Shown in pieces: positions 3,001-33,627 of a DNA stretch of 38,767 bases. Under the pieces are notes generated by a model. It was given only the letters and a program-made list of their open reading frames with translations. It was not told where the DNA came from and made no database searches. Each line of letters begins with the position of its first letter. Within the stretch, counting starts at the first letter, position 1. The stretch comes from a virus (Duplodnaviria; Caudoviricetes). A program made the position numbers and the translations under genes. The DNA lies in the IMG/VR virus record IMGVR_UViG_3300033067_002224, positions 1 through 38,767 of that record. The stretch is one strand, 5' to 3'.

Positions 3001-4058
3001 AGATAATGCTCATAACTATCAAACCCAGTAATAGTACTGTCTATTGATGAAGAGTATAAGTTTATTTGTTGCTGTAAACCTGTAATGCTAGGTATTAGAT
3101 AAGTATTATCATTTATGAAAGATTGAGCATCCTCTATTTGTTTAACCTTTGTCCAAAAATTAACTAAGCGTTGTTTAGCAGATCCAAAAAACACAAAATT
3201 ATCAAAGGTAGTATAATCTACATTAATATCTACACTTTGAGTTGTTGTTAAATTTAATAATTGTTGATATGAAGAACCTGTTAAACTTCCTATCAAATCA
3301 TTATACGTTTGATATTGAGTAGTTGTATTATTTTGATTCTTTATCTTAATGTCAAAATTGGGTCCTCTTAATTGGGGTAGGGGATCAGGAATTATTAATT
3401 TGTCTAAATTAATATCAAATAAATAGGGGTCAACTTTTTCATTTACTATCCAAAGTTCATCTTTTTCTTCAATTTGGCCTGGAAGAGTATCATATAATTT
3501 AACTAATATCTCAGTTCCACTTCCACTTATTGGGTTTAATAATTGGTTTACAATTAAAACTTGATTATTATTTCCAAAATTTAGTAAATAGTTATTAAAA
3601 TATAAAGTATTACTTCCACTCAAAATGTTGTTAAAACCTTGCTCAATTTCACTATTACTTAAAATAGTTGATGCTAATCTTAATTCAGTTCTATCTGAAG
3701 ATATTTCTTTTATGTAAAGAGAAGATAGTTCAGTTTTGAAAAAATTATATTGAACTTTGAATTCTCCAGAAGAATAGTTATTATCTTGTAAATCTTTAAT
3801 AGGATCTATTTCTATTATAGGATAACTTCCTGTTGTAGGATTAAGATATGATGTTGAAGGTAATTTAAAATTAGAATAATTATAGTCTAAATTTAATAAA
3901 CTTCCTCCAATATCATATACAAAATATTCTATATGATCTGTTGATAAATTAAAATCTCCAGGTAGTATTGATGATGATAATAACTTTATATCATTTTCAC
4001 TATAGTGTGAAAGTGTTAAAGTACTTAAAATATCTCCTACTATTTTTATTTGAGCCAT
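1..4058 (-). CDS. Large virion/baseplate structural protein (>1350 aa, 3' end outside window; possibly T4 gp7-like wedge)
   Basis: Not in ORF track because it is truncated. ATG at 4058 overlaps the upstream stop (TAATG). Translates MAQIKIVGDILSTL...IYHNLPFLLKTKGTAYGLQ..., and the same frame is still open at the window edge (YSTYGDVDYIFTPAVGDEI). Ser/Thr/Asn-rich and inside the baseplate cluster. Confidence 0.8.
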   Translation of the reverse strand, partial: MAQIKIVGDILSTLTLSHYSENDIKLLSSSILPGDFNLSTDHIEYFVYDIGGSLLNLDYNYSNFKLPSTSYLNPTTGSYPIIEIDPIKDLQDNNYSSGEFKVQYNFFKTELSSLYIKEISSDRTELRLASTILSNSEIEQGFNNILSGSNTLYFNNYLLNFGNNNQVLIVNQLLNPISGSGTEILVKLYDTLPGQIEEKDELWIVNEKVDPYLFDINLDKLIIPDPLPQLRGPNFDIKIKNQNNTTTQYQTYNDLIGSLTGSSYQQLLNLTTTQSVDINVDYTTFDNFVFFGSAKQRLVNFWTKVKQIEDAQSFINDNTYLIPSITGLQQQINLYSSSIDSTITGFDSYEHYLYYESGSYAWPKTNSTKPYSLQSTSSAEVQIWYNNMTSSAEDYDLNNYDNLEYAIPSFIKEDSSNQPYLTFLNAVGQYFDGIWVYLKSITDINLSNNNLDEGISKDLVQHVLQSLGINLYSKYGNSNLNQYLIGNNSGSTTFDNNFSSTGSYLNNIPRKDLLSELYKRIYHNLPFLLKTKGTAYGLQTFISTFGISSSILNVKEYGGYSKEEILQGYNNDKVRIISNNTTGSVLSPFTSIQYPPTSSRTQDEHYVDVSFSPQNQIDTYISASLPSTFSLDDYLGDPGYLYSSSYETLNTQKAHYYSAFTASYLDYAGFIRLIQYFDNSLFKMLKEYVPAKSNLSTGVTITSPILERNKMVYSNPSSTATQSVQEANYNAPSMSAQYGHFYDNLSGDKRAFYTGELSGSEIDVHHFFEANNTNYYLHPTSSLTNSDLNIFNHSDYNVLRNNVSSSRLSRTRKKIEYIYGTTSSITSSAELQDSYESLKSYQYSRYEGVKINSTTYNTWSLGDNSYGKNSVINQNVRKLGLFTQIVTSSFLPGRNNTSLKYLVDESGSLTELNQRNTHWEEVQRTFIAGQYLVVSQFDNQKYSNQRSTDGNKLIYNSGYSYWPMLYYSSSDDKLYFQYTGDSLSVLFHTLFQDGKYASGSAVITYPIISGSIYNIFDTLDSAYSDGNQYYVQGDTVNHYFPSYSVPQAGNYKFTSDFGLNIEYSVPKQSGSFTFSIVKNGSTQVTQSLGFTSSYQVNVYASSNVFYETTRPDSFQELVYGPISNSIDLYRGTTYVTTINSGSYLHIYTGSVNPCGGIYPSFVLDRDYQILYATSSTNSTVGDSPNLPGITKSSTPVNCGAGLFTAKYMANAWIWARDNGSGFNSTNLEQNLSTTLHFSASTAYDTYTTGDVVSFQFRVNSSSTSNFTASFIQTGYDGLRNSLQSNQQGANPYVTSSTEPFISGSINGDTIILSSGLTNLYGYLYLPSTGSNSLYSTYGDVDYIFTPAVGDEI

Positions 4059-4393: not shown

Positions 4394-4883
4394 TTTTTAT
4401 TTCGTTATATATTTTATTACGAGTAATTTGATTAATACTTGATAACCATAAAGGGATAGCAGTATGAAGGGCGTATCCATTTTTTTTTAAAATATCTATA
4501 ATATTATTGTAACATACATAGTATAATTTTGAATAAGCAAAGTGTATTAATTCTAATATATCTTCTGCTGATTTATTTGGCTTATTTATACCAATTTCTT
4601 TTAATTTATTTTTTTTCACAACAACTTGTGATTTGGGGATACCATAAAATGTAGATGCTATATGTTTCCCCAATATTCTACATAATTTAAAGTAACGCCA
4701 TTTGGAAAATTTTTCAATATCATCATTATCAATAAATGTGAAATAATAATCAGGAAACATATTTCTTCCTATCCAAAAACCAAAATTATCTATTTTAAAA
4801 TAATCATTACTTATCTGCTTAGCATACACTAATCCTGGTTTATTTACACCAATTTCTGCTAATATTTTGCTAAATTTTATCAT
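4359..4883 (-). CDS. EIGxNxP modular family protein, architecture leader-A-B
   Basis: MIKFSKILAE|IGVNKP...YGIPKSQV...LKE|IGINKP...; paralogous to five other ORFs in the window. Confidence 0.8.
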   Translation of the reverse strand: MIKFSKILAEIGVNKPGLVYAKQISNDYFKIDNFGFWIGRNMFPDYYFTFIDNDDIEKFSKWRYFKLCRILGKHIASTFYGIPKSQVVVKKNKLKEIGINKPNKSAEDILELIHFAYSKLYYVCYNNIIDILKKNGYALHTAIPLWLSSINQITRNKIYNEIKNVTDSYTKNSS

Positions 4884-5974
4884 CTAATTACCTTAAAAAT
4901 ATTATTGTCTTCAAATACCAAAGTTTCACCATTAGATAATACAGTTTTTATTAAAAGTTTATAGCTTCTTTCTGGTTCTAATCCGTTCATATATATTGTA
5001 AAATAATTCCCTTCAGAATCTGCAGATATTTTTGTATAATTAGTATCAAAATCATTTACAATTTCTTCGGTGTCATAATCTTTTATAGCCCAATATGATG
5101 TTGAAGGTAATACCTTATTTGTAGTATACAAAGAAGATGTTTGAAATGTTCGTGTGGGGTATTTATCTCTTACATTTATTCTAAATTGTTGTACGGAATC
5201 TTGTTGATATTCTCCTCTATTATTACCTAAAGTAACTACTATTTTATCATTATTAGCTAAAGATAGTGAACCTGTATTATATACGGAGTTATCCCATCTT
5301 ATTTCTAGGCATGGTGGATATATAGTATGGGTATTTCCTGTAAAATATTTTAGTTCAAATTTAGGATTATCTGTAAACTCCAAATTTGGTGAATGTTTTA
5401 TTATGAACCCTTCATTATTTATTGTACCACTTACCCAAGCATTTATAATATTTGTATTTTTAATTTCAATATCTTTAGAATCATTTGACAGAAATGATTG
5501 AGTATATTCATATATTGAACCCGAATACCATAATCCCCCTCCAACATTTGTTGAATATGAAGCAGTTGTATCTGCAGGTATACTACTTGTTAAAAACCAA
5601 GGACTACCGCTATCTTGATTTCTATAATACCACGATGCTCCTGTAGTAGTTATGGGTGAGTTAGATAACCGGCCTATTCCTAAATCCCACGAACCAGATA
5701 TTGGATGAATGTATAATGAGTAATCTAAAGGAAGTTCAGACGCATCCGCTAAATATAATTTAAGATATGAATCAAAGCTAGATGTTCCAACTTTTTGCAT
5801 AACATCTAAAATGTCAGATTGAGAAAATTTTATTAATCCCCTAGACACTTCTGATGTGCTTTCTAGTGATTCAAAAGTTGAAATTTCCATAATTTCATCT
5901 ATACCTGTATTCATTGTTGGATAATATGAATATAAGGTGGATGATTTCTCAGGGAAAATTTTAATTATCGCCAT
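4880..5974 (-). CDS. Putative virion structural protein
   Basis: 364 aa, beta-rich S/T/G composition, located among baseplate genes; no specific family recognised. Confidence 0.55.
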   Translation of the reverse strand: MAIIKIFPEKSSTLYSYYPTMNTGIDEIMEISTFESLESTSEVSRGLIKFSQSDILDVMQKVGTSSFDSYLKLYLADASELPLDYSLYIHPISGSWDLGIGRLSNSPITTTGASWYYRNQDSGSPWFLTSSIPADTTASYSTNVGGGLWYSGSIYEYTQSFLSNDSKDIEIKNTNIINAWVSGTINNEGFIIKHSPNLEFTDNPKFELKYFTGNTHTIYPPCLEIRWDNSVYNTGSLSLANNDKIVVTLGNNRGEYQQDSVQQFRINVRDKYPTRTFQTSSLYTTNKVLPSTSYWAIKDYDTEEIVNDFDTNYTKISADSEGNYFTIYMNGLEPERSYKLLIKTVLSNGETLVFEDNNIFKVIR

Positions 5975-6527
5975 TTAATTCTATTTCTTGTTTTAATTTT
6001 AAAAAACGTTTATATAAATCATTTAGTGTTTTTTGATTTAAAGTATCTAACCATGTTTCAATTGTGGGAGCAGAGCTTCGAGTATACCCATAATCTACTA
6101 ATGTTTCCCATCTTTTATCTCTATACCTTTTATTAAGTATATTTAATTTATTATTTAAGTCTAATATTTGATCCTTTATAGATTTAGGTTTATTAATACC
6201 AATTTCATTTATATTACCTACAATGTCAACTTGAGATTTGGGTATACCATATGTAATATTCAAATCCGTTTCTCTTACTATTTTAAAATATTTAAAATAT
6301 TTCCATTGTTTAAAAGTATCTAAACTTGGGTATTCTTTAGCATCTGGGTTATTTATGGAAAATGTCCAACCCCAGTACGGATAAGATATTCCTGTGTATT
6401 TGGTCATATCCCAAAATACATAATTATCTATTTTGATATAATTTACATCTCCATCCAAATATACACCTTTTAATATATGAGGACTATTTACACCAATTTC
6501 TTGTAGTATGTTTGAAAATTTAATCAC
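5961..6527 (-). CDS. EIGxNxP modular family protein, architecture leader-A-B
   Basis: MIKFSNILQE|IGVNSP...KQWKYFK...YGIPKSQV...INE|IGINKP...WLDTLNQKTLNDLY. Confidence 0.8.
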   Translation of the reverse strand: MIKFSNILQEIGVNSPHILKGVYLDGDVNYIKIDNYVFWDMTKYTGISYPYWGWTFSINNPDAKEYPSLDTFKQWKYFKYFKIVRETDLNITYGIPKSQVDIVGNINEIGINKPKSIKDQILDLNNKLNILNKRYRDKRWETLVDYGYTRSSAPTIETWLDTLNQKTLNDLYKRFLKLKQEIELNGDN

Positions 6528-7050
6528 TATATTTAAGACTATTTGTTCTGTTCATCCATCCTTTTAAAAATTTATTTTGACTAGGATTGGCTTTAACGAT
6601 ATCTAAGTATCTATTTTTTCTTACTTCTTGAATTTTTTCAAATAATTCTCGTTGATTAGGATAGTTATTTATTTTAGAAATGGTTATAGGTCCAAATGCA
6701 CCATCAGGATTAGCTCCTATTATAGTTTGAATTTTTTTACCCATCCCTCTTCCACAATTATAAGCAAAATCTACAATAGCATTAGCTACAGATTGATTTT
6801 TTATAGTATCTGCTCTAAATATATCCCAATATTCTTCTTTACAAAGTTTTAAAGCATCGTCATATGATATCAATGATACATCAGTAGCATTTATAAGGCC
6901 GTCATGATTTATATCATATCCATATTGCTGCCAGTCTTTTAAAGTTATACCATATTTAGTAGGACCACCTGCATCTCCGGGAACATTTTCATACTTATCC
7001 CCTTCCCATGGGATTAAAAAATTATCAAAATAAGGTTTAAAGTTTGCCAT
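6520..7050 (-). CDS. Glycoside hydrolase family 108 lysozyme with C-terminal peptidoglycan-binding region (endolysin or tail-associated)
   Basis: EG...GDAGGPTKYGIT catalytic motif, DFAYNCG, and C-terminal QNKFLKGWMNR, typical of GH108/PG_binding_3 proteins. Confidence 0.88.
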   Translation of the reverse strand: MANFKPYFDNFLIPWEGDKYENVPGDAGGPTKYGITLKDWQQYGYDINHDGLINATDVSLISYDDALKLCKEEYWDIFRADTIKNQSVANAIVDFAYNCGRGMGKKIQTIIGANPDGAFGPITISKINNYPNQRELFEKIQEVRKNRYLDIVKANPSQNKFLKGWMNRTNSLKYSD

Positions 7051-7054
7051 TTAA

Positions 7055-7483
7055 TTACATTTTTATTATTATATCTTCGGGTATTATTTTAATTGTTGCT
7101 TCTTTAAAATCAGCGGAACCCCAATCTAATTTTCCAAAATCTATATCAATAATATGAGAACGCATTATCCACATTTCACTTATTACTTCTCCTAAGCGGT
7201 CTAGTTCTTGTATAGATATTTTTTTAATTTCTTTAAAATTTTTCTTAACAATGTTAAATAATATTTGGTCTACTGATGGAGCTATTGGGGAATATAGCGA
7301 AAATGTCATTCTCTCCCACTTTTGATGTCCCCATCTATGTTTACCCCCATTACATAAATATTTTACAGGGCTAATTTTTTTTACTAAATATGATGGAATG
7401 CAAAATTCATCTGGGAAATCACATATAAACATGTTTTCATGTTTAGGTTCAAATATGTTACTTGGATTGAGGTTAAATGCCAT
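7055..7483 (-). CDS. Tail tube-like protein (T4 gp19-like, diverged)
   Basis: FEPK...IPSYLVKK...WERMTFSLYSPIAPS...DFGKLDW pattern resembles myovirus tube proteins. Confidence 0.65.
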   Translation of the reverse strand: MAFNLNPSNIFEPKHENMFICDFPDEFCIPSYLVKKISPVKYLCNGGKHRWGHQKWERMTFSLYSPIAPSVDQILFNIVKKNFKEIKKISIQELDRLGEVISEMWIMRSHIIDIDFGKLDWGSADFKEATIKIIPEDIIIKM

Positions 7484-7485
7484 TG

Positions 7486-7752
7486 TTAAATAAATTTAAT
7501 ATTTTGTTTTGAAATTACATACACGTTTTCATTATTTGGGGGAATTTTTAAGTATTGATAAAAATCATAATCTTCCAATCCCCCAAGTCTAAGCATATAA
7601 TAACAGCCAGGAAATTTATTTTCAAAATCCCCATCCCATAGATAATATCCACCCTCTTCAAGTTTAATAGTAGACCAGGATATTTTATAAGCATCAACTT
7701 TTTTCGGTATATTTACACCTATTTCAGATAATATATTTTTAAATTTTATCAT
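7486..7752 (-). CDS. EIGxNxP modular family protein, leader plus diverged module A
   Basis: MIKFKNILSE|IGVNIP...YLWDG...FPGCYY...YVISKQNI. Confidence 0.75.
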   Translation of the reverse strand: MIKFKNILSEIGVNIPKKVDAYKISWSTIKLEEGGYYLWDGDFENKFPGCYYMLRLGGLEDYDFYQYLKIPPNNENVYVISKQNIKFI

Positions 7753-9536
7753 ATTATAATTCTTCCTATTATATCTTCTTGAGGATATCTTACTTCAAAA
7801 ATGGCAGGATCCAATGAAGGATATACGTTACCATTGCGAGTTGCCCCTGCTATATCATATCCATATAAAGAATATGTTCCATTATCTGATTGTTTATTTA
7901 CTATTTCTACTTTTACAACGGATTTTACTCCTTTTTGTTGCAATAAAACAGTGTATATATCTGATATAGCTATAGGTTGGTTAATTTGCCATTTTGAAAT
8001 ATCAAAATAATTTTGTAAAGCTAAATTACAAGCCATTAAAATATCTTTATTATTGTATCCCGCTAATATTGTTATATCGAAGTTAATACCTATATTTATG
8101 TAAAAAGCATCTCTAATATTAATAGCATCGGTAACCATCCTAAATTGATTTAGGTATGTTACTAAGTTTTGTTTTAAAGTTGTTGATGCTTGGGTAAGTT
8201 TATTATTACTATTAAAAGCTAAAACATACATGTCTAAAGATAAAGGATTTGATTCTTGAGTATTTATATAAACTTTTGCCATATTTCCAAAATCTGATGG
8301 CATGCTTAGTGCTCTTACAATATAATCCTCTTTAGTTACCGCTCTTAGTTGAGATGAATAAGTATATAATGTATTATTTCTAATTTCTTCAACCGTATCT
8401 CCATTGCGACCTCCTATAGATGAACTAGGATTTGTTGACAAAATACTTTGAAACACCTGATCAGCTGTTGGATTACTAGGATTCCCATATTTAAATGATA
8501 TCCCAGACGTATCTATAATTGTTAAATCGTTTGATGGAACGTTAGAAGTTACTCCTCCTCCTACTAAATACTTTACTTGCATTCCAATATTTGATGGAGC
8601 TAATCCATACTCTTGTGTATAAAATATAGAAGCTTCATTATAGTTATCTTGTAAATTAGATATTCCTGGTACTAATCCTAGTTGAATATTATCAGGTGTT
8701 GGGATAATTTGATCATCATTATTATTAGATATTCCTGCTCCAAATTCTATTTGTAACGTATCATCTGATAAAAATCTAGATACAAATCGTCTTGGTACAC
8801 GTTGTAGTTCAAGTAAATATGGAACACCATCAGAACCTGATGTTGAATTATTTCCTTTTAAAAATATAGTAGATTGGGCTAAATATGGAACTTCATACCA
8901 CTTATTTGAATCACTACCTGTTACTTCCAGTATTTGTAATATGTTTGAATCTGTAATAGTTACAGTTGAAAATTTTTGAGGAGCCCCAAACGTAAATGAT
9001 GTTGATTTAATTTCGGCAGATATAGCTTTAGTTGTTTTTTTCATCAGGTAAAAATTACTATCTATATAGGATATTTCTGATGAACCTGTATCTGAAAAGT
9101 CAACTTGTTTTAAAGTAAGAAATTTCACACCTGTTGTAGCTGACGTTACAACAGTATTTTCGGGAACTAATAAAGAATATGACAAATCAGGATATGTAAT
9201 ACCTGCTGATTGTGTTGTTGGTATTAATTGATATATGTCTAAATCAGTATATGATGCATATGATACTTTAGGACGGTATCCTCTTGTATATGCTTCTGCT
9301 AATAAATTTTCTTTTTCTTTAGCATATAGTAGGAAATTTTCTTGTACTTGGGTATCAATATAAAATGAACTAACATCTCCCAAATATGCTGCTAAGTCTA
9401 TAAAAATACCACCTGGGTTAGCATCTGAAAAGTCATTGTAACTATTTGGAAAGTATGTTTTTATATAGTTTTGTAAGTTGGCTTTAAAGTCTGAAAATTG
9501 TTTATTTAGGTAACTTATATTTTTATTATTGTTCAT
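7749..9536 (-). CDS. Baseplate wedge protein (T4 gp6-like / baseplate J-like)
   Basis: YNDFSDANPGGIFIDLAAYLGDV, GYRPK, IEFGAG, GGRNGDTVEEIR and RAVTKEDY motifs of gp6-type wedge proteins. Confidence 0.88.
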   Translation of the reverse strand: MNNNKNISYLNKQFSDFKANLQNYIKTYFPNSYNDFSDANPGGIFIDLAAYLGDVSSFYIDTQVQENFLLYAKEKENLLAEAYTRGYRPKVSYASYTDLDIYQLIPTTQSAGITYPDLSYSLLVPENTVVTSATTGVKFLTLKQVDFSDTGSSEISYIDSNFYLMKKTTKAISAEIKSTSFTFGAPQKFSTVTITDSNILQILEVTGSDSNKWYEVPYLAQSTIFLKGNNSTSGSDGVPYLLELQRVPRRFVSRFLSDDTLQIEFGAGISNNNDDQIIPTPDNIQLGLVPGISNLQDNYNEASIFYTQEYGLAPSNIGMQVKYLVGGGVTSNVPSNDLTIIDTSGISFKYGNPSNPTADQVFQSILSTNPSSSIGGRNGDTVEEIRNNTLYTYSSQLRAVTKEDYIVRALSMPSDFGNMAKVYINTQESNPLSLDMYVLAFNSNNKLTQASTTLKQNLVTYLNQFRMVTDAINIRDAFYINIGINFDITILAGYNNKDILMACNLALQNYFDISKWQINQPIAISDIYTVLLQQKGVKSVVKVEIVNKQSDNGTYSLYGYDIAGATRNGNVYPSLDPAIFEVRYPQEDIIGRIII

Positions 9537-9560
9537 TTTCGAATTTTTCTTTTAATTTTA

Positions 9561-10043
9561 TTAATATCTTCTAAAGTATTCTAATATTTGAAAGTATAAA
9601 TCTTTTTTAGATTTAATAGGATATATAGCTTTTTTTAAAGGAAAATACACAGTTTCATCATAATATATATTATATAAATTATATGGATATTTTTCAGTTT
9701 CATCACCATTTTCTAATCCACACCATTCTACACCTATTTGCAAGTCTAAAAGAGAATCAGTACATAATTTATAATTTTTTTTAAAATTTTCCTCTCCTAC
9801 TACTTTTAATATACATTGATTTTTGACATCTTGATATCTATTTAACGGAAATACCAATTCGTTAACCATAATATATTCATCATTACTAATTAAGGGTACT
9901 TCTCTATCAAATTCTAACCATATTGAAAATCTACATAAATTTGAAACAATATCATTAAATTCTTTTTCATTTGATATTCCTAATGGACCATATATTGGGT
10001 TATTTATTCCAATTTCTGCTAATATTTTACGAAATTTAATCAT
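9561..10043 (-). CDS. EIGxNxP modular family protein, leader plus unrelated module C
   Basis: MIKFRKILAE|IGINNP followed by a ~145-aa domain unlike modules A and B. Confidence 0.75.
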   Translation of the reverse strand: MIKFRKILAEIGINNPIYGPLGISNEKEFNDIVSNLCRFSIWLEFDREVPLISNDEYIMVNELVFPLNRYQDVKNQCILKVVGEENFKKNYKLCTDSLLDLQIGVEWCGLENGDETEKYPYNLYNIYYDETVYFPLKKAIYPIKSKKDLYFQILEYFRRY

Positions 10044-10453
10044 TATACTAACTGTATTAAAATTTGGTCTTGTGTACCTGATAATTTTATTTGGTATTTA
10101 ACCAATATAGATATTGTGTTGTTGTCTTCATCAGGATTAACAATAATATCTTTTATAGATACTTCAGGAATATACATAGTAACACTACTTAAAATTAGTT
10201 CCCTAACAATTTCTGCAGTTGTCTCTGTTATTCCTTCAAATAATACTCTTCTTAGATCTGTTCCAAATTCTTGATTTAATATACGTTCTCCTTTATTTGT
10301 TAATAATAAATTAATTAGATTGGATTTAATTTGATCTTGAGTAGAAAATGTAGGTTTAAACACAGCGGGTGTATTAAAAGGCAGAGATACTCCAATTGCT
10401 ATATTTTTTTGTAAATCTAAGGTTGATATTTTAGTTATTTGGGGTAAAGGCAT
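10043..10453 (-). CDS. Baseplate protein, GPW/gp25 family
   Basis: QIKSNLINLLLTNKGERILNQEFGTDLRRVLFE is the gp25 signature. Confidence 0.9.
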   Translation of the reverse strand: MPLPQITKISTLDLQKNIAIGVSLPFNTPAVFKPTFSTQDQIKSNLINLLLTNKGERILNQEFGTDLRRVLFEGITETTAEIVRELILSSVTMYIPEVSIKDIIVNPDEDNNTISILVKYQIKLSGTQDQILIQLV

Positions 10454-10464
10454 TTTGTTTTATT

Positions 10465-11049
10465 TTAATATTTATCTATAATTTCAACTTGAGATTTAGG
10501 GATGCCATATAAAATAATATCACCCTCACCTTTGTCATCTTCTTTTAATTTGGTAAAAAGTTTAAAATATTTCCATTTTTGAAACTTTCCTAAATTTTCA
10601 TTACCCGTACCTACTTCATAAAAAAACCAACACCAATAACCTGGGATAGGGTCAAAATGATTGTCATCTCCATTCCAAAATGTCCAAAGACCATCTATTT
10701 GAATTCTATCAGGATTTGAATTATACAATTCGGCTTTTAACCTAATAGGGCTATTTATTCCAATTTCATCTAATTTATCAACAATTTCAACTTGAAATTT
10801 GGGAATACCATATAAATTAACACCATCATTTTCTCTCTGTAAACGCTTTAAATATTTAAAAAAGGTACAATCTTTATAAGCGTTTACATCAAAAATATAC
10901 CTTACATAATACCCAGGATAATAATAATGTTTACCATTAGCGAAGGTGTAATTATCAATAATTATATCACCTAGGGTATACTCTCTCGCTATAATTTTTC
11001 CTGGTTTATTAACACCAATCTCTTGTAATATATGTTTAAACGTTATCAT
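10465..11049 (-). CDS. EIGxNxP modular family protein, architecture leader-A-A
   Basis: MITFKHILQE|IGVNKP...YGIPKFQVEIVDKLDE|IGINSP...YGIPKSQVEII. Confidence 0.8.
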   Translation of the reverse strand: MITFKHILQEIGVNKPGKIIAREYTLGDIIIDNYTFANGKHYYYPGYYVRYIFDVNAYKDCTFFKYLKRLQRENDGVNLYGIPKFQVEIVDKLDEIGINSPIRLKAELYNSNPDRIQIDGLWTFWNGDDNHFDPIPGYWCWFFYEVGTGNENLGKFQKWKYFKLFTKLKEDDKGEGDIILYGIPKSQVEIIDKY

Positions 11050-11384
11050 AAATTTCTTAACCCAGATCTATCTTGTGGTGTCATATTTTCACCTGCATCC
11101 AAAATGAAATCCATAAATGGGTTTTCAGATTCAGGTTTAACTTCTAGTTGTTTATATTGTTGTGCCGCAGCTTGTAATCCAAATGCTGAATTCATTTTTG
11201 AACGTAATTGGTTACGAACGGTGTTAGGGTCAACTCCTTGCTTTTTTATAAAATCACCAGATGTAAATGAAAATTCTTGATTTTCTTTTAATAATTTACC
11301 TTCTGTTAATAATTGAGGTAATTCTTCTTTTAGTACCTCTCTTACACATTCTTTGATAAGATGTTTAAATTGTTTTGTATTCAT
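11046..11384 (-). CDS. Hypothetical protein with repeated (L/I/V)xE motifs (possible head-associated protein)
   Basis: FKHLIKECVREVLKEELPQLLTEGKLLKE. Confidence 0.55.
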   Translation of the reverse strand: MNTKQFKHLIKECVREVLKEELPQLLTEGKLLKENQEFSFTSGDFIKKQGVDPNTVRNQLRSKMNSAFGLQAAAQQYKQLEVKPESENPFMDFILDAGENMTPQDRSGLRNL

Positions 11385-11396
11385 ATAAATAAATAT

Positions 11397-12332
11397 TTAA
11401 GCTACTAAATCGAGCGCATCAATTTGTATTTTTAATTGTTCTATTAATATATTTGGGTCTTGTGTGAACGAATATTCACTTTTTAGCACTTCACGTCCAA
11501 TACTATTTATTGCTACTGCGTAATGACGTTTATAGCCTTTTACTACAAATTCTGGGTTTTGTTCTTCTTTTAGGGCAAATGTGAATCCTTTATATGGTTC
11601 GAATTGAGTTACACGTAAACTACTTAAAAAATTATTTAATTCATCATTAGTTAGTGTAGATGTAGTTTTATCTTCTAAAATATCATTAATTTGTAATAAT
11701 TTCTTTTTTAATTCTTCCAAATCATTAACAAGGCGGGTTAAAACTGATACTACAATAGCTAGTATAGCGGCTAATCCTGATACTATTTTAGTAGCTTTTT
11801 CCATTTGTTTAGATATTCCTGTAATAATATTTAGAGGAATACCCACACCTGGTGGAACAGCTGTAGGGATGGCTATTAGAGACAATGCATTAATTAACAA
11901 ACTAAATATTTGAATAAACCCACTTAGTTTTCCCAAAACATCTTTCATTTGTAGTATTTTCTTTTCATTATCGTTTATGATGTTTATAGCAGTATCTCTT
12001 AAAACTTTGGCTTGATTTATTTGATCTTGTGTTTTAGCATTTTTTATAAATTCATTAGTTTTATTTACTAAATCATTTAATTTTGAATTTTGAGTATAAA
12101 TTTGAGATAATTGATTTGAAGCTTGTAATCCAATCACTGGGATTAGTGATTTAACTGAGTTACCTGATATTTTTGAAGTTCGTTCGCTTTGTGCTTTTTG
12201 TCTTTTAACCTTGTTACTGTTTAATTGAGTATCAATGTTGCTCTTGACATTTTTTTGTTGATCAAAAATAGATTTATATTCGTTAGAATTTTGTGAAGAT
12301 GATGGTATAGATATAAGAGAATTAACATTCAT
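11397..12332 (-). CDS. Coiled-coil protein with hydrophobic hairpin (IPTAVPPGVGIP), putative virion protein
   Basis: 311 aa; two hydrophobic helices around a Pro/Gly turn; located in the structural cluster. Confidence 0.55.
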   Translation of the reverse strand: MNVNSLISIPSSSQNSNEYKSIFDQQKNVKSNIDTQLNSNKVKRQKAQSERTSKISGNSVKSLIPVIGLQASNQLSQIYTQNSKLNDLVNKTNEFIKNAKTQDQINQAKVLRDTAINIINDNEKKILQMKDVLGKLSGFIQIFSLLINALSLIAIPTAVPPGVGIPLNIITGISKQMEKATKIVSGLAAILAIVVSVLTRLVNDLEELKKKLLQINDILEDKTTSTLTNDELNNFLSSLRVTQFEPYKGFTFALKEEQNPEFVVKGYKRHYAVAINSIGREVLKSEYSFTQDPNILIEQLKIQIDALDLVA

Positions 12333-13498
12333 TATGTTAAAAAGTTTTGAGTTGAAACAATATTTTTTAGATCTGAAATATCATTTTCTAAATTATTCAT
12401 TAATCCTTCTGCAGCTGTATTTATGTCAATAATTGGAGATCCTTCAGGAGTTGACACAGCTGCTGACAATAATGAACAGAATTCATATAAATGTGATAAA
12501 GTATTAGATAATAAGGTAATAGTTTTATTACCTAACATCATGGGTTCATCTGGTAACGTTCCATTAGGTTTAGTACCTAAAAATGTTTTAGGTGAGTTTA
12601 TATGTACTCTATTTCCTGCATTTAAGTTTATTATATTATCAGTACCAAATTCAATATTAGTTTTGGCTAAAATTAAAATATCATCTTTTTTTGAATTTAA
12701 AACTACTCTATCTGCGTTTAAAAAAATTTGAGAATTAAAATATTTGGAGACATCAGTAGGATTAGTTAAAACATTTAAAGGGCTTTTTTTAACTGAATTT
12801 AATAAAATTTTTTGATTAGTTGTAAGCCAAATAGAAGAAGCTTCTTTATTAATATCTTCAACATAAGGAATATTTGAACCAGAAATGTATTTATGACCGT
12901 TTGATAATATGGTTATAGGTTCTCCATTACCATAAGATGACCATGTGTTTTTGTTTGATATGCTTGTACCAAAACGTAATGAATTTCCTTTTCTACCTTG
13001 TAAAATATAATCTCCTTCAAAAGGTTGTATATTAGATATATTCCCTGATTCTAAAAAGGTTTGTCCTAATACTTCATTATCGTCAGATGGTTGAGCATTA
13101 TGTTGGATATTATTCCATAAATTTATTATACTTGAATAATATTTTTGAGAACTAGTGTTAACTACTTGAGAAGCGGCTGACGGTAGGTCTTCTATTACAA
13201 TTAATTCTCCTATTAAAGGATGATATAATTCATTGGGTTTTAGAGGATACGCTATTTTACAAGCATCCCAAAAATCATCACTATTTATTGTAATAATATT
13301 TTTAGCTTGCTCATAGTCTAAGTATAATACTGCTCCTAAACCACTAAATTTTCCTACACGTTCAAATTGTTTCTTAGAGGGAACATTTTCATCCATTACA
13401 ACAGCGTATACTTTACCTATTTGGTTTTGATTAATAATAGGTACAACATTCTTTCCTGACAGCGAAACTATTGGGGATAAATTCTCTCTAATTCTCAC
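12332..13498 (-). CDS. Putative baseplate hub/spike (gp5-like) protein
   Basis: PLIGELIVI N-terminal OB-like segment, FEGDYILQGRKGNSLRFG, and short beta-repeat C-terminus; adjacent to gp25/gp6-like genes. Confidence 0.55.
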   Translation of the reverse strand: MRIRENLSPIVSLSGKNVVPIINQNQIGKVYAVVMDENVPSKKQFERVGKFSGLGAVLYLDYEQAKNIITINSDDFWDACKIAYPLKPNELYHPLIGELIVIEDLPSAASQVVNTSSQKYYSSIINLWNNIQHNAQPSDDNEVLGQTFLESGNISNIQPFEGDYILQGRKGNSLRFGTSISNKNTWSSYGNGEPITILSNGHKYISGSNIPYVEDINKEASSIWLTTNQKILLNSVKKSPLNVLTNPTDVSKYFNSQIFLNADRVVLNSKKDDILILAKTNIEFGTDNIINLNAGNRVHINSPKTFLGTKPNGTLPDEPMMLGNKTITLLSNTLSHLYEFCSLLSAAVSTPEGSPIIDINTAAEGLMNNLENDISDLKNIVSTQNFLT

Positions 13499-13884
13499 TT
13501 TTTAAATTTTTTTACAAGTTCTTGTTTTTGTTCTAGTAACTTATTGCTTTCAAATTCTAACACTTTTTGTTCATTTAGTATTTGAGCAATTTCGTCTTGG
13601 TCTATGAATGATTCACTTTCTTTAGAAACGCTATTGGCTGCTCGTTGAGCTATAGCTGCCATTCTTACCAACTGATCATTATTTTTTACATTGACATCTA
13701 TTAAATCTTTAACTATAGGCATTAACATTACAGCAGAACCCGCGTTATTTACAAAGGGTTGCATTGTAAGTATTAAGCCATTTATTTGGCTATCAATATC
13801 TTTATTATTTTTATGTATTTGTTTAAACAAATCTGACAATGATGTTTTGCCAAAAATTTGTACATCTTGAAAATTATTGCTCAT
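13495..13884 (-). CDS. Hypothetical helical protein
   Basis: 129-aa ORF translationally coupled within the late cluster. Confidence 0.6.
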   Translation of the reverse strand: MSNNFQDVQIFGKTSLSDLFKQIHKNNKDIDSQINGLILTMQPFVNNAGSAVMLMPIVKDLIDVNVKNNDQLVRMAAIAQRAANSVSKESESFIDQDEIAQILNEQKVLEFESNKLLEQKQELVKKFKK

Positions 13885-14644
13885 TTTCTAATTCTTGTTT
13901 TAATTTTAATAGGTCATAGTATACTTTAGATAAGGTACCCATATCTAACATTTTCATCCATACTATGATATTGGATTTAGCATTCCACCCATGGTTATAA
14001 CATATACCTGATATACTACGATCTCTATTTGTTGAATAATTTGGGATATGTAATATATCTACAACTAAATTTTGAATTGTACTGGGAGTTATTTTTGGTT
14101 TATTTACACCAATTTCCTGAAGTTTATCTTTATATGTTTTTCTTAGGTAATGATATAGTTTATTTATAGTGGTTTGATCTAATGATTGAAGCCAATCACC
14201 AAGTGCTCCATTACCTGCTCCATATTGTTTTAATACATCAAACATTTTAGAGTATTCTTTATCTCCAATTTTATAATATAAATCATACAATAGACTATCA
14301 AATTTATCTGGGGTAATATTGGGGTTATTAACACCAATTTCTTTTAAGTCATCAACTATTTGAACTTGGTCTTTAGGAATACCGTATACACTAGTAGTAT
14401 TCCATCTATCTACTTTTAGAGGTTTTAGAAATTTGAAAAATTTTTTATTTTCACATTTGCGAATATCTCTAGGGGGAATATATCTTGCGTAATATTCTGA
14501 AAAACTTGGATCATAAATTTTTCCATCATAAAATTCCCATCTTTCAATTATAATTCTCCCCAACATATCCCTATTAACTTTTTTAGCTTTTAATTTATTA
14601 GGGTTAATTATACCAATTTCTTTTAAGATTTCCATGAACTTCAT
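13874..14644 (-). CDS. EIGxNxP modular family protein, architecture leader-A-B-B
   Basis: MKFMEILKE|IGIINP...YGIPKDQVQIVDDLKE|IGVNNP...LQE|IGVNKP... Confidence 0.8.
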   Translation of the reverse strand: MKFMEILKEIGIINPNKLKAKKVNRDMLGRIIIERWEFYDGKIYDPSFSEYYARYIPPRDIRKCENKKFFKFLKPLKVDRWNTTSVYGIPKDQVQIVDDLKEIGVNNPNITPDKFDSLLYDLYYKIGDKEYSKMFDVLKQYGAGNGALGDWLQSLDQTTINKLYHYLRKTYKDKLQEIGVNKPKITPSTIQNLVVDILHIPNYSTNRDRSISGICYNHGWNAKSNIIVWMKMLDMGTLSKVYYDLLKLKQELENEQ

Positions 14645-14661
14645 AGCAATAAATATGTACT

Positions 14662-23115: not shown

Positions 23116-23477
23116 TTTCGTAAAAAGTTTATATATAGCGTATCACGACTAACATACCCTGTTAAGGTATCTTTATGACCGGCATCAGCTGATATTAGAT
23201 TATAGTTTGGTGGTAAATCCAACACATACTTATATTGATTATTATCTTTAAAGTAGTGTATTGGATTACGGCAATTACCCTTGTGTGTAAGGGAATATGT
23301 GCGCGTATCACCAACACCTCGTTCAACTTCAATATATTCACATCCATCTATGGTGCGAATAGTATATGCGCTATCAGGAATTTCTTCCTGGGGTTGTTGC
23401 ATAGTACATGCGATTGCCATGTATGAAATAAATGCTGCAACCCACAGCATTAGTGGTATGTATTCTTTTTTTGTCAT
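23112..23477 (-). CDS. Lipoprotein-like protein
   Basis: Signal-like N-terminus ending AIAC; IDGCEYI...LTHKGNCRNPIH. Confidence 0.55.
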   Translation of the reverse strand: MTKKEYIPLMLWVAAFISYMAIACTMQQPQEEIPDSAYTIRTIDGCEYIEVERGVGDTRTYSLTHKGNCRNPIHYFKDNNQYKYVLDLPPNYNLISADAGHKDTLTGYVSRDTLYINFLRK

Positions 23478-23488
23478 ATTACCAAATT

Positions 23489-24100
23489 GATGTTGATGAG
23501 ATAGACTATATGGATATTTTGTTTATTAGTTATTACCCACATCATTACGTCCACACTGTGCATCATTTCAAGTGTGAATTAGTCACTTCCAGATTATAGT
23601 CAATTAGCACCCTTTCTTACAGCTAGTAAGAGTAGGGTCGTGCTGAGAACTCATTTGTGCTGTAGTGACTTCCAAATAAAAGGAGATTTAACTTGTACCT
23701 TAGTATTTGGTCCTATTTTCCACTCTTAGTTTTCGTATTCCATATCTCAATTTGGAACAACACATTCCATATTACTATGGAAATTTTAGAATTGTAAATG
23801 CAGAGTTATACATATCTGCTACCACCATATATAACCTATTGGTTGCCCATAGGATTTTCATGTATTTTTAATTACAATTCAAGGAATGTGATAACCTTTT
23901 TGGTAATTTCGATAAAGGGACTAGGCACCCTAAATATTAGCGACAAAAAACTAGTCCTAAGAGCTATTCCATGCCCAGATAATCACCTAGGATTACCAGA
24001 TGTTAACCTTTCCTTCTCGCTTTTTACAGCAGATTTCGGAGCACTATGCTTATCGACCGCTTAGTCATAACGGCTGCCACTAATACGCCTGCTTGACATC
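23489..24100 (-). ncRNA. Candidate large structured ncRNA / RNA-based insertion element
   Basis: No minus-strand ORF in an otherwise tightly packed genome; many 7-9 bp stems, GNRA loops, a pseudoknot, and a flanking 9-bp direct repeat. Confidence 0.6.
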
Positions 24101-24112
24101 TACCAAATTATT

Positions 24113-24208
24113 TTATTCATCACGTAATAATTTTACTGAAACAGCAGCTACAATAACGGCACAAACTGTAATAATTGTTATTGACGCGCTTAAGAATTGA
24201 TCTGACAT
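24113..24208 (-). CDS. Small hydrophobic peptide (31 aa)
   Basis: MSDQFLSASITIITVCAVIVAAVSVKLLRDE, directly downstream of a promoter motif. Confidence 0.45.
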   Translation of the reverse strand: MSDQFLSASITIITVCAVIVAAVSVKLLRDE

Positions 24209-24237
24209 TTTGCGTAACCTTTTGAATTATTTTTGAG

Positions 24238-24264
24238 TAAATGTAAGAAAAGAATTTTGACAAA
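24238..24264 (-). promoter_or_regulatory. Phage promoter motif TTTGTCA-N12-TAnnTTTA, copy 1
   Basis: TTTGTCAAAATTCTTTTCT-TACATTTA; five copies with fixed spacing, all upstream of starts. Confidence 0.65.
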
Positions 24265-24536
24265 AAACAAAAAATATATATAAAACTTTCGCCGAGATCT
24301 TTTTTTTTCTGATGCGCAAGGGTATGAAAAGTGTGCCAAAATGGAAAATGTGGTATCGTATATAAGTATATAGCATCGATGGTGAAAAGATAGTGTCGCG
24401 CTGCGAATACGTGGAAGTTTTATTGCGCCATGCACCACCCGTCGATGGACCGCAACGCGCGGTCATCTACTCACCAACTATATGACAGTGCTATAATTTT
24501 ATTTTGGGTAGCATTAAGTGCCCGTAAATTAATTGC

Positions 24537-24584: not shown

Positions 24585-25202
24585 TTATTCTTCTTCTGTC
24601 CCTATCATTTCACCTATTGGTTCTTCGATTGGTTCTGTTTTAGGTGCTTCAATTACCACTTTAACTGAGGCAGGATTGGTAATTCCCATCTGTGCAAGGT
24701 ATGCTTTGGTCCTGTTTTCCATTTGCTTAGCAAGTTTCTTTTGACGCTCTGAAGTGGGGTTTAACGGGCGGCCTTGTTTACCTGTGCCTGATGTTCCTTT
24801 CTCAGCGAGGCGTTGTTGACGAGCTGAACCTGGAACGACCGGTCTGCCTTGTTGTAACTTGAAATCTTCAGGTAGTTCAGTAATCTTATCTACGTCTTCC
24901 TGAGACATGCCGGCATCAAGCTGTTTTTGCTTGTAAATTGCTAAACGGTGTTCGTGCTTGGCTTGCTCATCTGCCTGACGTTTTGATGTTGGATCAACTG
25001 GTCTGCCTGGCTTCATCTTGAAATCAGCAGGTATAACAATAACATCATCTTTCGCAGCTTCCTTGTCTGCAATGTGTTTAATTGCTTCATTACCTGATTT
25101 CTTAGCGATGTGCTGTACTAACTCTTCAACGCTGTGCTTCGTTGTGTCAAGACCCATTTCTTTTGCTGTCTTTTGCACTTGCTTGATTTGACTCTTTGTC
25201 AT
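24585..25202 (-). CDS. GRP-repeat (AT-hook-like) putative DNA-binding protein, paralog 1
   Basis: Three GRPxxPxSxRQ repeats; core strongly similar to 25568..26104. Confidence 0.7.
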   Translation of the reverse strand: MTKSQIKQVQKTAKEMGLDTTKHSVEELVQHIAKKSGNEAIKHIADKEAAKDDVIVIPADFKMKPGRPVDPTSKRQADEQAKHEHRLAIYKQKQLDAGMSQEDVDKITELPEDFKLQQGRPVVPGSARQQRLAEKGTSGTGKQGRPLNPTSERQKKLAKQMENRTKAYLAQMGITNPASVKVVIEAPKTEPIEEPIGEMIGTEEE

Positions 25203-25567: not shown

Positions 25568-26104
25568 TTATGCTTCTGCCATTTCTTCCATTTCTTCACT
25601 AAACACCTTTTCATCAGGTGTTTCAAGGCGCACCACAACCTTTGATGGATCAGTAATACCAAGTTGAGCTAAATAAGCTCTGGTCCTGTTTTCCATTTGC
25701 TGGGCAAGCTTTTTCTGACGTTCTGAATTAAGGTTTGTTGGGCGTCCCTGTTTACCATTACCAACTGAACCCTTGGCCAATTTTTGTTGACGTTCTGAAC
25801 CCGGTACTACTGGGCGGCCTTGTTTTAATTTGAAATCTTCAGGTAGCTCTTTTACAGCATCAATTTCTTCTTGCGTCGCACCTTCAGCTTTTAATTTCGC
25901 TTTATAAATCGCTAAACGATGTTCCTGTTTAGCAGCCTCATCAGCCTGACGCTTTGAGGTAGGATCAACCGGACGACCTGGCCTCATCTTAAAATCTGCA
26001 GGTATAACAATAACTTCAGGTGTAGTTTCTACTGCTTCACCTGTTGTCGGTGTAACTTCTGTTGTCTCAACAGCTGCTGTTACATTTTTTTCTGTCTTTT
26101 TCAT
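25568..26104 (-). CDS. GRP-repeat (AT-hook-like) putative DNA-binding protein, paralog 2
   Basis: VIVIPADFKMRPGRPVDPTSKRQADE...; three GRP repeats. Confidence 0.7.
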   Translation of the reverse strand: MKKTEKNVTAAVETTEVTPTTGEAVETTPEVIVIPADFKMRPGRPVDPTSKRQADEAAKQEHRLAIYKAKLKAEGATQEEIDAVKELPEDFKLKQGRPVVPGSERQQKLAKGSVGNGKQGRPTNLNSERQKKLAQQMENRTRAYLAQLGITDPSKVVVRLETPDEKVFSEEMEEMAEA

Positions 26105-30409: not shown

Positions 30410-30739
30410 TTATAGTGAAGCGTTACGTACAATTTTTCTAATTTCAAGAAGCATTTTTACTGTAGTTTCAAATTCATCTTCATCTGAATTTACAATCCAG
30501 CTCCATGCTTCTTCACACATGCTGTTAATAGGGTTTTCACCATTAGGAAATGGTTTAGGTCCTTTAACAGTAGCATTATAAACGTCATTGTCTTCGGGTT
30601 CAAACTCTAACAACAATGTTGTTTTAGGATTAAGATTAATTTCAATTTTTGATAATTTTCTTATCACTTCTTTAACTGTCGGGGTAATCATATTATTTGT
30701 TTTTTGGTTTACGTCCGCGTTTACCTCCTGTTGGTACAT
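30410..30739 (-). CDS. Hypothetical protein (likely start MITPTV)
   Basis: ORF tiling. Confidence 0.5.
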   Translation of the reverse strand: MYQQEVNADVNQKTNNMITPTVKEVIRKLSKIEINLNPKTTLLLEFEPEDNDVYNATVKGPKPFPNGENPINSMCEEAWSWIVNSDEDEFETTVKMLLEIRKIVRNASL

Positions 30740-31310
30740 AAGGTTTTGTTTTTCTTAGTTCAGGTGCCAGTGTTGGACGACCTCGTTTACCTTTAGGTTT
30801 ATTTTCAACTGCGGGTTGAAGTGCCGCTCTTTTTGCTTTTTCTTCATCTGATAATGGTTTACGTCCACGTTTACCACCTGTTGGAACATATGGCTTTGAT
30901 ATTCTCTTTTCAGGATCAATTGAGGGACGACCCCGTTTACGTTTTGGAGCATTTGGGTCTTTTTCAACTAGGGGTTTTATTCGTTTTCTACCTCGACGTT
31001 TAACGGATTCATTAATTATTTCCGTTTTAATTTTTAACTCATTAGGGTGAACAATTAATGCATCTAAATAAAATGCTCTAGCCCCACCTGTAGAGTCTCT
31101 ACATTCATAACCACCACCAGCCCAACCTTTTTCTCCATGTTCGTGACGTGCTATAAAAAAGAATTGTACTCCAAACTCCGTATCGAAATACGGTGCTGGG
31201 AGTACTCTTATACCTGGTTTAAATGAGGTATACTTATTCTTTTCATCTTCTGATTCAAACTTAAATGCTTTCCTTGAAGTACAAGGGGCGGGTATGTCAA
31301 TTATTTTCAT
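30693..31310 (-). CDS. Multi-AT-hook basic DNA-binding protein
   Basis: KRRGRKR, KRKRGRP, GKRGRP and a twice-repeated KPYVPTGGKRGRKP. Confidence 0.7.
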   Translation of the reverse strand: MKIIDIPAPCTSRKAFKFESEDEKNKYTSFKPGIRVLPAPYFDTEFGVQFFFIARHEHGEKGWAGGGYECRDSTGGARAFYLDALIVHPNELKIKTEIINESVKRRGRKRIKPLVEKDPNAPKRKRGRPSIDPEKRISKPYVPTGGKRGRKPLSDEEKAKRAALQPAVENKPKGKRGRPTLAPELRKTKPYVPTGGKRGRKPKNK

Positions 31311-32493: not shown

Positions 32494-33627
32494 TTATTGT
32501 TGTTTGAAGTCTTTTGAATCAGCGGAATAACTAAAGTATATTCTATTAAATTCTGTAGATTTAATCATTGCGTAATCGAATTCAAACCCCGGTCTTTGGT
32601 CTACACAAGTTACAACCAGATTTTTATTACAATTTCCAGAATATGCACTATCAACTTTAATTGAGAAATCAAGTAGAGGGTAATTCAATCGATACTTTTT
32701 AAATTCTCCCTGCCACTTATTAGTAACATTTATTTCCTCCTCAGTATTAACAAGTTCAAGATCTTCTGGGTCACAGGGCATATAGCCGTTGCCATGACGG
32801 GTTAAGTAACTTCTAGTTACATAGTAAATATTAATCTTTGAAATAAATAATTTACTACATATTTCCATGGCGTTTTTACTTGTAGTGTTTGAATATGTTA
32901 CATAAGGAAAATAACCATGATCCATATCTAACATTATACCTTGTGATCCTTCAAAAATCAAGTCATCATATTCATTTTCTATTATAGAATAATCCTGGAT
33001 TGTTGGGTAAATTACTTTTAGCAAGTAATTTATAGCTGCTTGTTCTTCAAATTGTTCTTTTTCAAGAAATTCGAAATATATCTTTGATTCTTCACCAGAT
33101 AATTGTTGTAAATAATAATCTGATATTAGGTTGTACTTATAATTAAATAAGTCTTCATTTTGAAGATCAATAGCATGAAGTTTATAAGGGGTTGTTAAAC
33201 TTCTTTTCATAGTTGAACCAATACCCTTTCCACATGAACCATGTTGGTTATGCAACTCTTTAGTACGATTAAATGCAATGTCAGGGGCTATTGATACTTT
33301 AGCTAAAGGATGAATTATTATCTTTATTAGAGAAGTATTTATTTCTCTTATAAGAGATATATATTCATACACCATAGCTCTAGGATTAATAACACAATGT
33401 TCACTAATGTATGTAGGGACACCTCTTAGCGTACCCGACCCAAAACTAGAGAAAACATGTTTAATTTTGTCTCTTTTAACAGCGTGGCCTGCTTGGTGAC
33501 CACCTGAGAATCTTACTACTAATGGGTTTAGACCGTTTTTTAAAGACTGAGAGCAAAGGAAATCTGTTGTGATTCCTTTACCCTCATCTCCAAATGCTAG
33601 GCCTAATACTACTTCGGCTTGCGGCAT
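32494..33627 (-). CDS. purA: Adenylosuccinate synthetase-like protein (divergent PurA family)
   Basis: FGDEGKG, RFSGGHQAGH, FEGSQGIMLDMDHGYFPYVT and YLTRHGNG motifs. Confidence 0.85.
   Translation of the reverse strand: MPQAEVVLGLAFGDEGKGITTDFLCSQSLKNGLNPLVVRFSGGHQAGHAVKRDKIKHVFSSFGSGTLRGVPTYISEHCVINPRAMVYEYISLIREINTSLIKIIIHPLAKVSIAPDIAFNRTKELHNQHGSCGKGIGSTMKRSLTTPYKLHAIDLQNEDLFNYKYNLISDYYLQQLSGEESKIYFEFLEKEQFEEQAAINYLLKVIYPTIQDYSIIENEYDDLIFEGSQGIMLDMDHGYFPYVTYSNTTSKNAMEICSKLFISKINIYYVTRSYLTRHGNGYMPCDPEDLELVNTEEEINVTNKWQGEFKKYRLNYPLLDFSIKVDSAYSGNCNKNLVVTCVDQRPGFEFDYAMIKSTEFNRIYFSYSADSKDFKQQ

Follow-up and report, generated by a model that had tools for sequence, protein, structure and literature searches.

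The window, by which we mean the whole 38,767-nt stretch of DNA analyzed, is a 38.8-kb fragment (~23% complete) of a large tailed phage and carries on its minus strand a structured RNA gene of ~295 nt (23604..23898). This gene is almost certainly a genuine member of a structured RNA family, of which about 90 distinct copies were found. The family is a new fold among the orphan structured RNAs of phages, and one member, the g004–g005 RNA of Cellulophaga phage phi14:2, is already on record as an unexplained transcript. An initial annotation had proposed a structured non-coding RNA of ~610 nt at this place and had named a stand-alone group I-like ribozyme, a GOLLD/ROOL-type RNA or a new class as candidates. 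Its structured nature and strand were borne out, as was the new class; the conserved unit spans ~295 nt rather than 610, and the results speak against group I, GOLLD and ROOL.

Genes of the window, nearly all on the minus strand, include those for baseplate, endolysin and adenylosuccinate-synthetase-like proteins. The phage is a large myophage, and its host is presumably a member of the Bacteroidota, to judge from the phages in culture that have this RNA. The product of 32494-33627 is assigned by PHROG to 2-aminooxy adenylosuccinate synthetase, and its best solved relatives (E ≤ 1e-20) are ordinary PurA. In the structural region, a short N-terminal coding repeat is common to at least nine genes (4572-14651).

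Structure of the RNA unit and its surroundings

The gap at 23478-24189 is indeed the longest between listed minus-strand ORFs of at least 70 aa, and its ORF-free part is 23478-24112 once an unlisted 31-aa hydrophobic ORF (24113..24208, minus strand) is counted. It sits between this small ORF (end 24113) and ORF 23477-23112, and a plus-strand ORF of 88 aa overlaps it at 23798-24064. A recurrent, putative promoter motif (24231..24282, minus strand; five copies in the window) is located upstream of both the small ORF and the RNA, in agreement with the promoter motif noted previously; the small ORF lies between this motif and the RNA. The transcript of the RNA could end at a terminator-like hairpin (23431-23451), which lies 26 nt within ORF 23477-23112. 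A 9-nt direct repeat (24109-24101 and 23488-23480) brackets the gap, with both copies complementary to 23907-23899, an arrangement that may be due to chance. In the core-constrained fold only, 23486-23478 may pair with 23907-23899 on the minus strand as a closing stem of 9 bp (p 0.87).

The minus strand of the gap folded better than shuffled controls (z -2.5; 0/20 shuffles), and the plus strand gave z -1.8 (1/20 shuffles). Perfect 7-bp helices numbered 27 in the whole gap vs. 12.9 expected, a count reached in 1 of 2000 shuffles. The excess of folding was located in the central ~300 nt (z -2.2). The 5′ flank (23899..24112, ~210 nt, minus strand; z -0.4) has no homologue beyond a near strain: blastn and nhmmer gave no matches to it beyond the unit's own start, and one low-depth contig of run X5 spans 23957-24114 with 10 differences. 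The 3′ flank (23478..23603, ~125 nt, minus strand; z +0.24) is without homologue and contains the GACUAUA/UAUAGUC helix. Most of the gap is without coverage by the contigs aligned to this region. Among the sequencing runs listed for this phage there is no RNA run, an absence that has no bearing on expression.

Members of the family share a block order of E1 hairpin, P0, GNRA hairpin, P1, P2 with a UGAGA loop, P3, linker, UUCUCA, P4, an optional P5, P6 and GGGUGCUAA, and the window copy follows this order without P5. Its limits were set from the match to the CM R1 (see below), from abutting tandem copies and from the conserved end blocks; the ends of the unit are fixed by locus L179, in which two units abut. 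Unit length ranges from 201 to 503 nt (median 326; 54 measured); the core is constant and is interrupted at about five places by inserts of free length.

The unit opens with hairpin E1 (23881..23898, minus strand), which carries a subtype variant loop and forms four of four stem pairs in the window and in its relatives L087, L151 and L175. E1 is present in 74 of 80 members, with stems longer than those with shuffled partners (5.15 vs. 4.25; maximum 4.64). The P0 helix (23789..23880; 23880-23872 with 23797-23789) corresponds to the pairing GAAUUGUAA/UUACAAUUC first pointed out in the initial annotation; it is supported by pairing probabilities of 0.6-1.0, and the equivalent helix of the family was recognized by eye. 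P0 encloses a variable insert, predicted from pairing probabilities, with a second hairpin (23819-23800) and the GCAA hairpin (23853-23835) reported earlier, which is predicted (p 0.95) but is specific to the window copy. The GUAA hairpin (23765..23782), also recognized earlier, is the GNRA hairpin of the family, with a GNRA loop in 40 of 40 aligned members and two-sided changes in six of six stem pairs.

A three-way junction of P1, P2 and P3 follows (23656..23764), for which the covariation of P1 (23764-23758 with 23662-23656; 7/7 pairs) and P2 (23757-23738, loop UGAGA at 23749-23745; 4/4 pairs) provides the evidence. The variable P3 (23724-23720 with 23668-23664; inner stem 23710-23704 with 23678-23672) is less firmly supported: P3 stems were above shuffles in 57 of 80 members, and that of the window equaled the control. 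The conserved linker AAUGAG and the strand UUCUCA, with which the P2 loop is predicted to form a pseudoknot, occupy 23644..23655. The 3′ domain (23604..23643) contains P4 (23643-23641 with 23609-23607), P6 (23637-23610) and the last block GGGUGCUAA. All these elements are on the minus strand. A conserved peptide starting at the linker AUG was considered and rejected; the last stop was in frame in 24 of 79 members, an ORF ended there in 1 of 79 (the window), and lengths varied from 5 to 39 aa.

Covariation was evaluated in 40 members aligned by sequence alone, with the window left out. Both sides changed in 30 of 42 pairs, which none of 500 shuffles reached, although misaligned rows without P5 inflate part of the count for P5 and P6. 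In this alignment 90.7% of cells pair, and slid controls gave 0.04-0.085 vs. 0.342 for the real pairing. In P1 and P2 both sides changed on the same tree branches, 3-17 per pair and about as often as a single side did, which argues for repeated compensations. GU/UG pairs outnumbered AC/CA pairs (76 vs. 28), and this excess, together with GNRA tetraloops in 40/40 members, fixes the minus strand as the RNA strand.

The predicted pseudoknot between the P2 loop and UUCUCA is likely real. Its two strands are complementary and nearly invariant (97.9% paired; no two-sided change in 40 rows), one of the five central pairs being broken in 3 of 40 rows, and one strand was set by the search patterns. The UGAGA loop varies at its second base in L131 and L189 without change in UUCUCA. 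Locus L050, which only the model detected, keeps both strands even though two hairpins interrupt its linker. Mini-modules of 90-100 nt, likewise found by the model alone, lie between tRNA genes (L049:1180-1262, with L045; L237:1510-1607) and end a few bases before a tRNA, one of them ~3 nt before tRNA-Gln. They lack E1, linker and 3′ domain but retain the P2 loop, with UUCUC(A) placed in the loop of a new hairpin; because L049/L045 and L237 share this hairpin, they were counted as one event. The joint retention of P2 loop and UUCUCA in three architectures favors their pairing over a T-loop.

The other helices of the initial annotation fared differently, although its five complementary pairs and two GNRA hairpins were without exception found where it had placed them. 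GGACUAG/CUAGUCC has a pairing probability of 0.02 and no homologue. CACAUUCC/GGAAUGUG (p 0.02; four to five of eight pairs in the three closest relatives) is unsupported because its formation would undo the conserved E1, GNRA stem and P1. AGUCACU, the strand proposed for an interleaved P3/P7 pseudoknot, overlaps the 3′ strand of the family P3. In the unconstrained fold, which lacks P1 in the window unit, AGUCACU/AGUGACU forms (p 0.9-0.97) and is a stronger helix than P3; given the weak P3 of this copy, a copy-specific long-range pairing is possible.

Family members, distribution and the phi14:2 transcript

A first lead to relatives came from a contig comparison, in which three records matched only 23625-23665 and then diverged. 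Patterns from this block returned one viral locus, eight metagenome loci and nine viral loci, and a further pattern search yielded 120 viral loci from half of the viral collection. Ninety of the 120 distinct motif contexts passed a parse of helix P1, and 80 complete units were kept after removal of a false positive (L155), with nine lacking a parsed 3′ end. The 30 contexts failing the parse were mostly chance matches in genes; they also include the true truncated or odd members L091, L120, L134, L148 and L192. The CM R1 was built from the 5′ core of 58 members, leaving out the window and its two closest relatives, L087 and L151. It scored 23781-23641 of the window at 45.4 bits on the minus strand (E 1.5e-8, a rough value), and the next match had 16.9 bits. 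A match in G038 (E 0.007) was set aside as noise, the DNA around it being coding-like.

Rfam 15 models found nothing above chance in the window at gathering and E-value thresholds, and in 29 family loci they found tRNA and tmRNA only, plus one below-cut-off DUF805b match outside the unit. No match to the gap was obtained by blastn against cultured phages (L087 gave chance matches only) or by an exact 19-mer search (0 matches), and scans with single proteins found no close relatives. No host homologue was found in 151 genomes of one Bacteroidota-centered sample, in which only 26 candidates per genome were scored, without a positive control. A pattern search of the genome collection gave two matches; one was due to chance, and the other, in a MAG, corresponds to phage locus L084. 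The contig L102 of an archaeal MAG shares both RNA and flanks with L084, a phage-like locus, and is probably a mis-binned phage contig. A description of the RNA family was not found in the literature searched; six motif strings were absent from seven of the supplementary files of PMC10690425.

The variant E1 is common to five loci (the window, L087, L151, L161 and L175), which form a subtype, and a variant P2 is common to the window, L087 and L151. L151 lies in a complete 93-kb phage without the baseplate protein of the window, and G022, a true relative of the window phage (48% identity), has the canonical RNA subtype ~2.3 kb behind the same repeat-protein gene as in the window. Credible RNA matches occur in 4 of 42 related myophage records, including two of eight near-complete ones. 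Carriers of the family include records of 270 and 373 kb, and phages phi4:1 and phi17:2 retain a 3′ remnant only. This distribution is most readily explained by a cassette that passes from phage to phage.

The 102 flanking ORFs of 54 units fell into 91 clusters with scattered Pfam matches, and no cognate protein gene was identified among them. A unit may be followed by a gene, a tRNA or tmRNA, a terminator-like hairpin or a second copy. At L050:12487-12535 and L175:1030-1065, tRNA-like knobs without a full cloverleaf were observed directly before or inside the RNA unit. In the window, at 24585-25202, 25568-26104 and 30693-31310, two paralogues contain repeated GRP-x-x-P-x-S-x-R-Q motifs, and similarly basic coding repeats occur in a third protein. 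The motifs of the paralogues are AT-hook-like, and the proteins are possibly nucleic-acid-binding; the paralogues had no Pfam or PHROG match, gave 23 database matches and have relatives at 72 viral loci.

Locus L088 matches phi14:2, and positions 2905-3370 of the phi14:2 record contain every conserved block of the family. In RefSeq, the gene ending at 2904 is g004 and the gene at 4602 is g006, from which g005 appears to be a removed feature between them. Transcription of the g004–g005 and g005–g006 junctions is reported to be rightward and above that of most genes, to begin early and to be undiminished late, with its function given as unknown (10.1101/2020.03.07.982082); the text of that study describes the long non-coding RNA without structure, ends or family. 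The g004–g005 junction (2905-3589) is homologous to the window RNA, with the same order of blocks and an R1 score of 85.7 bits, though it contributed to R1. The phi14:2 copy lies on the strand of the early genes, the same agreement of unit and flanks as in the window. It differs from the window copy in that its unit of 449 nt has a canonical E1 and P5, whereas the ~295-nt unit of the window, in a large myophage, has variant E1 and P2 and no P5. The second abundant region, at the g005–g006 junction (L103:3514-3983), holds a tmRNA gene.

Candidate functions of the RNA

We tentatively favor, at somewhat below even confidence, a free-standing RNA gene of ~295 nt that acts in trans as an abundant and stable decoy of a conserved host factor. 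The invariant core, the free outer stems, the lack of a partner gene and the varied 3′ contexts make action in trans most likely, and the abundance of the phi14:2 region together with the constant core suggests a stoichiometric binder. For the window copy, transcription would start from the motif at 24231-24282, and the RNA would then be cut out of a longer transcript. Pairing of the P2 loop with UUCUCA would knot the three-way junction onto P4/P6 to give a compact, nuclease-resistant core, on which the invariant unpaired bases of the E1 loop, the linker and the P4/P6 junction may form the binding surface for a host protein, one that serves in translation, RNA turnover or anti-phage defense. 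A precedent for phage RNA decoys is pseudo-ToxI of the type III toxin–antitoxin systems, as outlined in PMC3594212. The likeness is confined to the proposed action, an abundant knotted phage RNA binding a host factor; the present family has no repeat array and no match to the Rfam antitoxin RNA families. Abundance and conservation would be equally compatible with a ribozyme, an RNA linked to tRNA or one that forms cages.

It is less probable that the RNA binds tRNA or aids the maturation of tRNA or tmRNA, with the P2 and E1 loops as a T-loop platform for the tRNA elbow and the linker AUGAG pairing with the Met anticodon loop to shield or sequester the tRNA. Members are found within 1.2 kb of a tRNA or tmRNA in 12 of 49 loci, a T-arm motif lies near the unit in 8 of 54, and the mini-modules lie between tRNA genes; no tRNA, however, is present in the window or at most loci. 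T-loops are closed by a U1-A5 pair according to PMC4810234, and tRNA-elbow binders with interdigitated T-loops (T-box, RNase P, L1 stalk) would have two such loops. UGAGA fits this rule, and its second base varies in L131 and L189 while UUCUCA is constant. The E1 loop fits the rule less well and differs in the window subtype, and the P2 loop is kept along with UUCUCA in three architectures. AUGAG could pair with the complementary CUCAU in the loop of tRNA-Met, but L086, L091 and the mini-modules lack it, and the search pattern included it.

We consider it unlikely that the RNA works in cis, as a leader or stabilizer whose knot blocks nucleases or helps to translate the next early gene. A three-way junction followed by the predicted downstream pseudoknot would resemble exonuclease-blocking RNAs, the unit always lies on the strand of its flanking genes, and in 28 of 80 members an ATG follows no more than 46 nt downstream. 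The downstream genes nevertheless share nothing, several units stop at a terminator-like hairpin, at a tRNA or at another copy, and in the window the next ATG is 126 nt from the unit.

A new class of self-cleaving or processing ribozyme, cutting itself or its neighbors from the early transcript, appears slightly more doubtful. Catalytic RNAs typically combine invariant junction bases with interchangeable peripheral stems; both are seen in this family, and its tandem and tRNA-adjacent copies need precise ends. Neither the window nor the 29 family loci matched a ribozyme model, no gene is interrupted, and the phi14:2 region is reported to accumulate among the most abundant transcripts (10.1101/2020.03.07.982082).

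Assembly into a cage or scaffold, in the manner of GOLLD (RF02032) and ROOL (RF03087), is improbable. Those RNAs are described in PMC12286853 as phage-encoded, abundant, pseudoknotted, often near tRNA genes and of unknown function; the setting is the same in our family, with abundance taken from the phi14:2 region, and the loop–UUCUCA pairing could be intermolecular. GOLLD often exceeds 800 nt and forms a 14-mer cage. The units described here, of 201-503 nt, are about half the size of the GOLLD and ROOL RNAs, have a different fold and place free-length inserts in outer loops, unlike conserved bridges. Neither the GOLLD model of the conserved 3′ domain nor the 574-position ROOL model matched the window or the 29 family loci. 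A dedicated search with each model was likewise blank; the control for GOLLD matched below the cut-off only, and the ROOL search had no positive control.

It is very unlikely that the window holds a decaying, non-functional passenger copy. The family can decay, as the remnants in phi4:1 and phi17:2 indicate, and the window scores lower with the CM (45 bits) than L087 (68) and L151 (76), but this lower score is due to its longer P3 insert. No conserved block is missing, and pairing is complete in E1, P0, the GNRA stem and P1.

Hardly any credence is left for the originally suggested stand-alone ribozyme of 610 nt and group I-like type, whose P3/P7 core would span 23670-23504 and thus fall partly outside the conserved unit. 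The order of the two helices is as it should be, each is a perfect 7-mer, and AGUCACU/AGUGACU is stable in the free fold, but a crossing 7-bp pair arose in 309 of 2000 shuffles of 23680-23490, so the P3/P7 pseudoknot is not beyond chance, and among 80 members (76 with at least 120 nt downstream) the window alone has such a tail. The short GACUA/UAGUC complementarity of the 3′ flank is similar to group I P7, but it belongs to a chance-level helix unique to the window copy. The group I model (RF00028) gave no matches at E ≤ 10, with two control genomes above the cut-off; the segment between the proposed helices, where P4-P6 would lie, is the linker and 3′ domain of the family, and, as first noted, no gene is split, the flanking ORFs having their own stop and start. 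A pattern made from the proposed P7/P3 strands found eight loci, none of them homologous.

Implications for Bacteroidota phages

Two abundant RNAs of phi14:2, a model crAss-like phage, had lacked an explanation; one can now be given a fold, unit ends and some 90 relatives, and the junction of the other is found to hold a tmRNA. New here are the five-member subtype common to unrelated phages and the mini-modules in tRNA arrays, which back the pseudoknot of the P2 loop and UUCUCA. Because one member resides in a cultured phage–host pair, the function is directly testable. There is some chance, though a modest one, that the family is a new functional class swapped among unrelated Bacteroidota phages, either capturing tRNA in trans (T-box-like, through the Met anticodon loop) or acting as an undescribed ribozyme, with a knotted 90-nt mini-form between tRNA genes. 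If the RNA does bind tRNA or is catalytic, it would constitute a new RNA class. The movement of a conserved core among crAss-like phages, jumbo phages and myophages suggests a common target in their Bacteroidota hosts.
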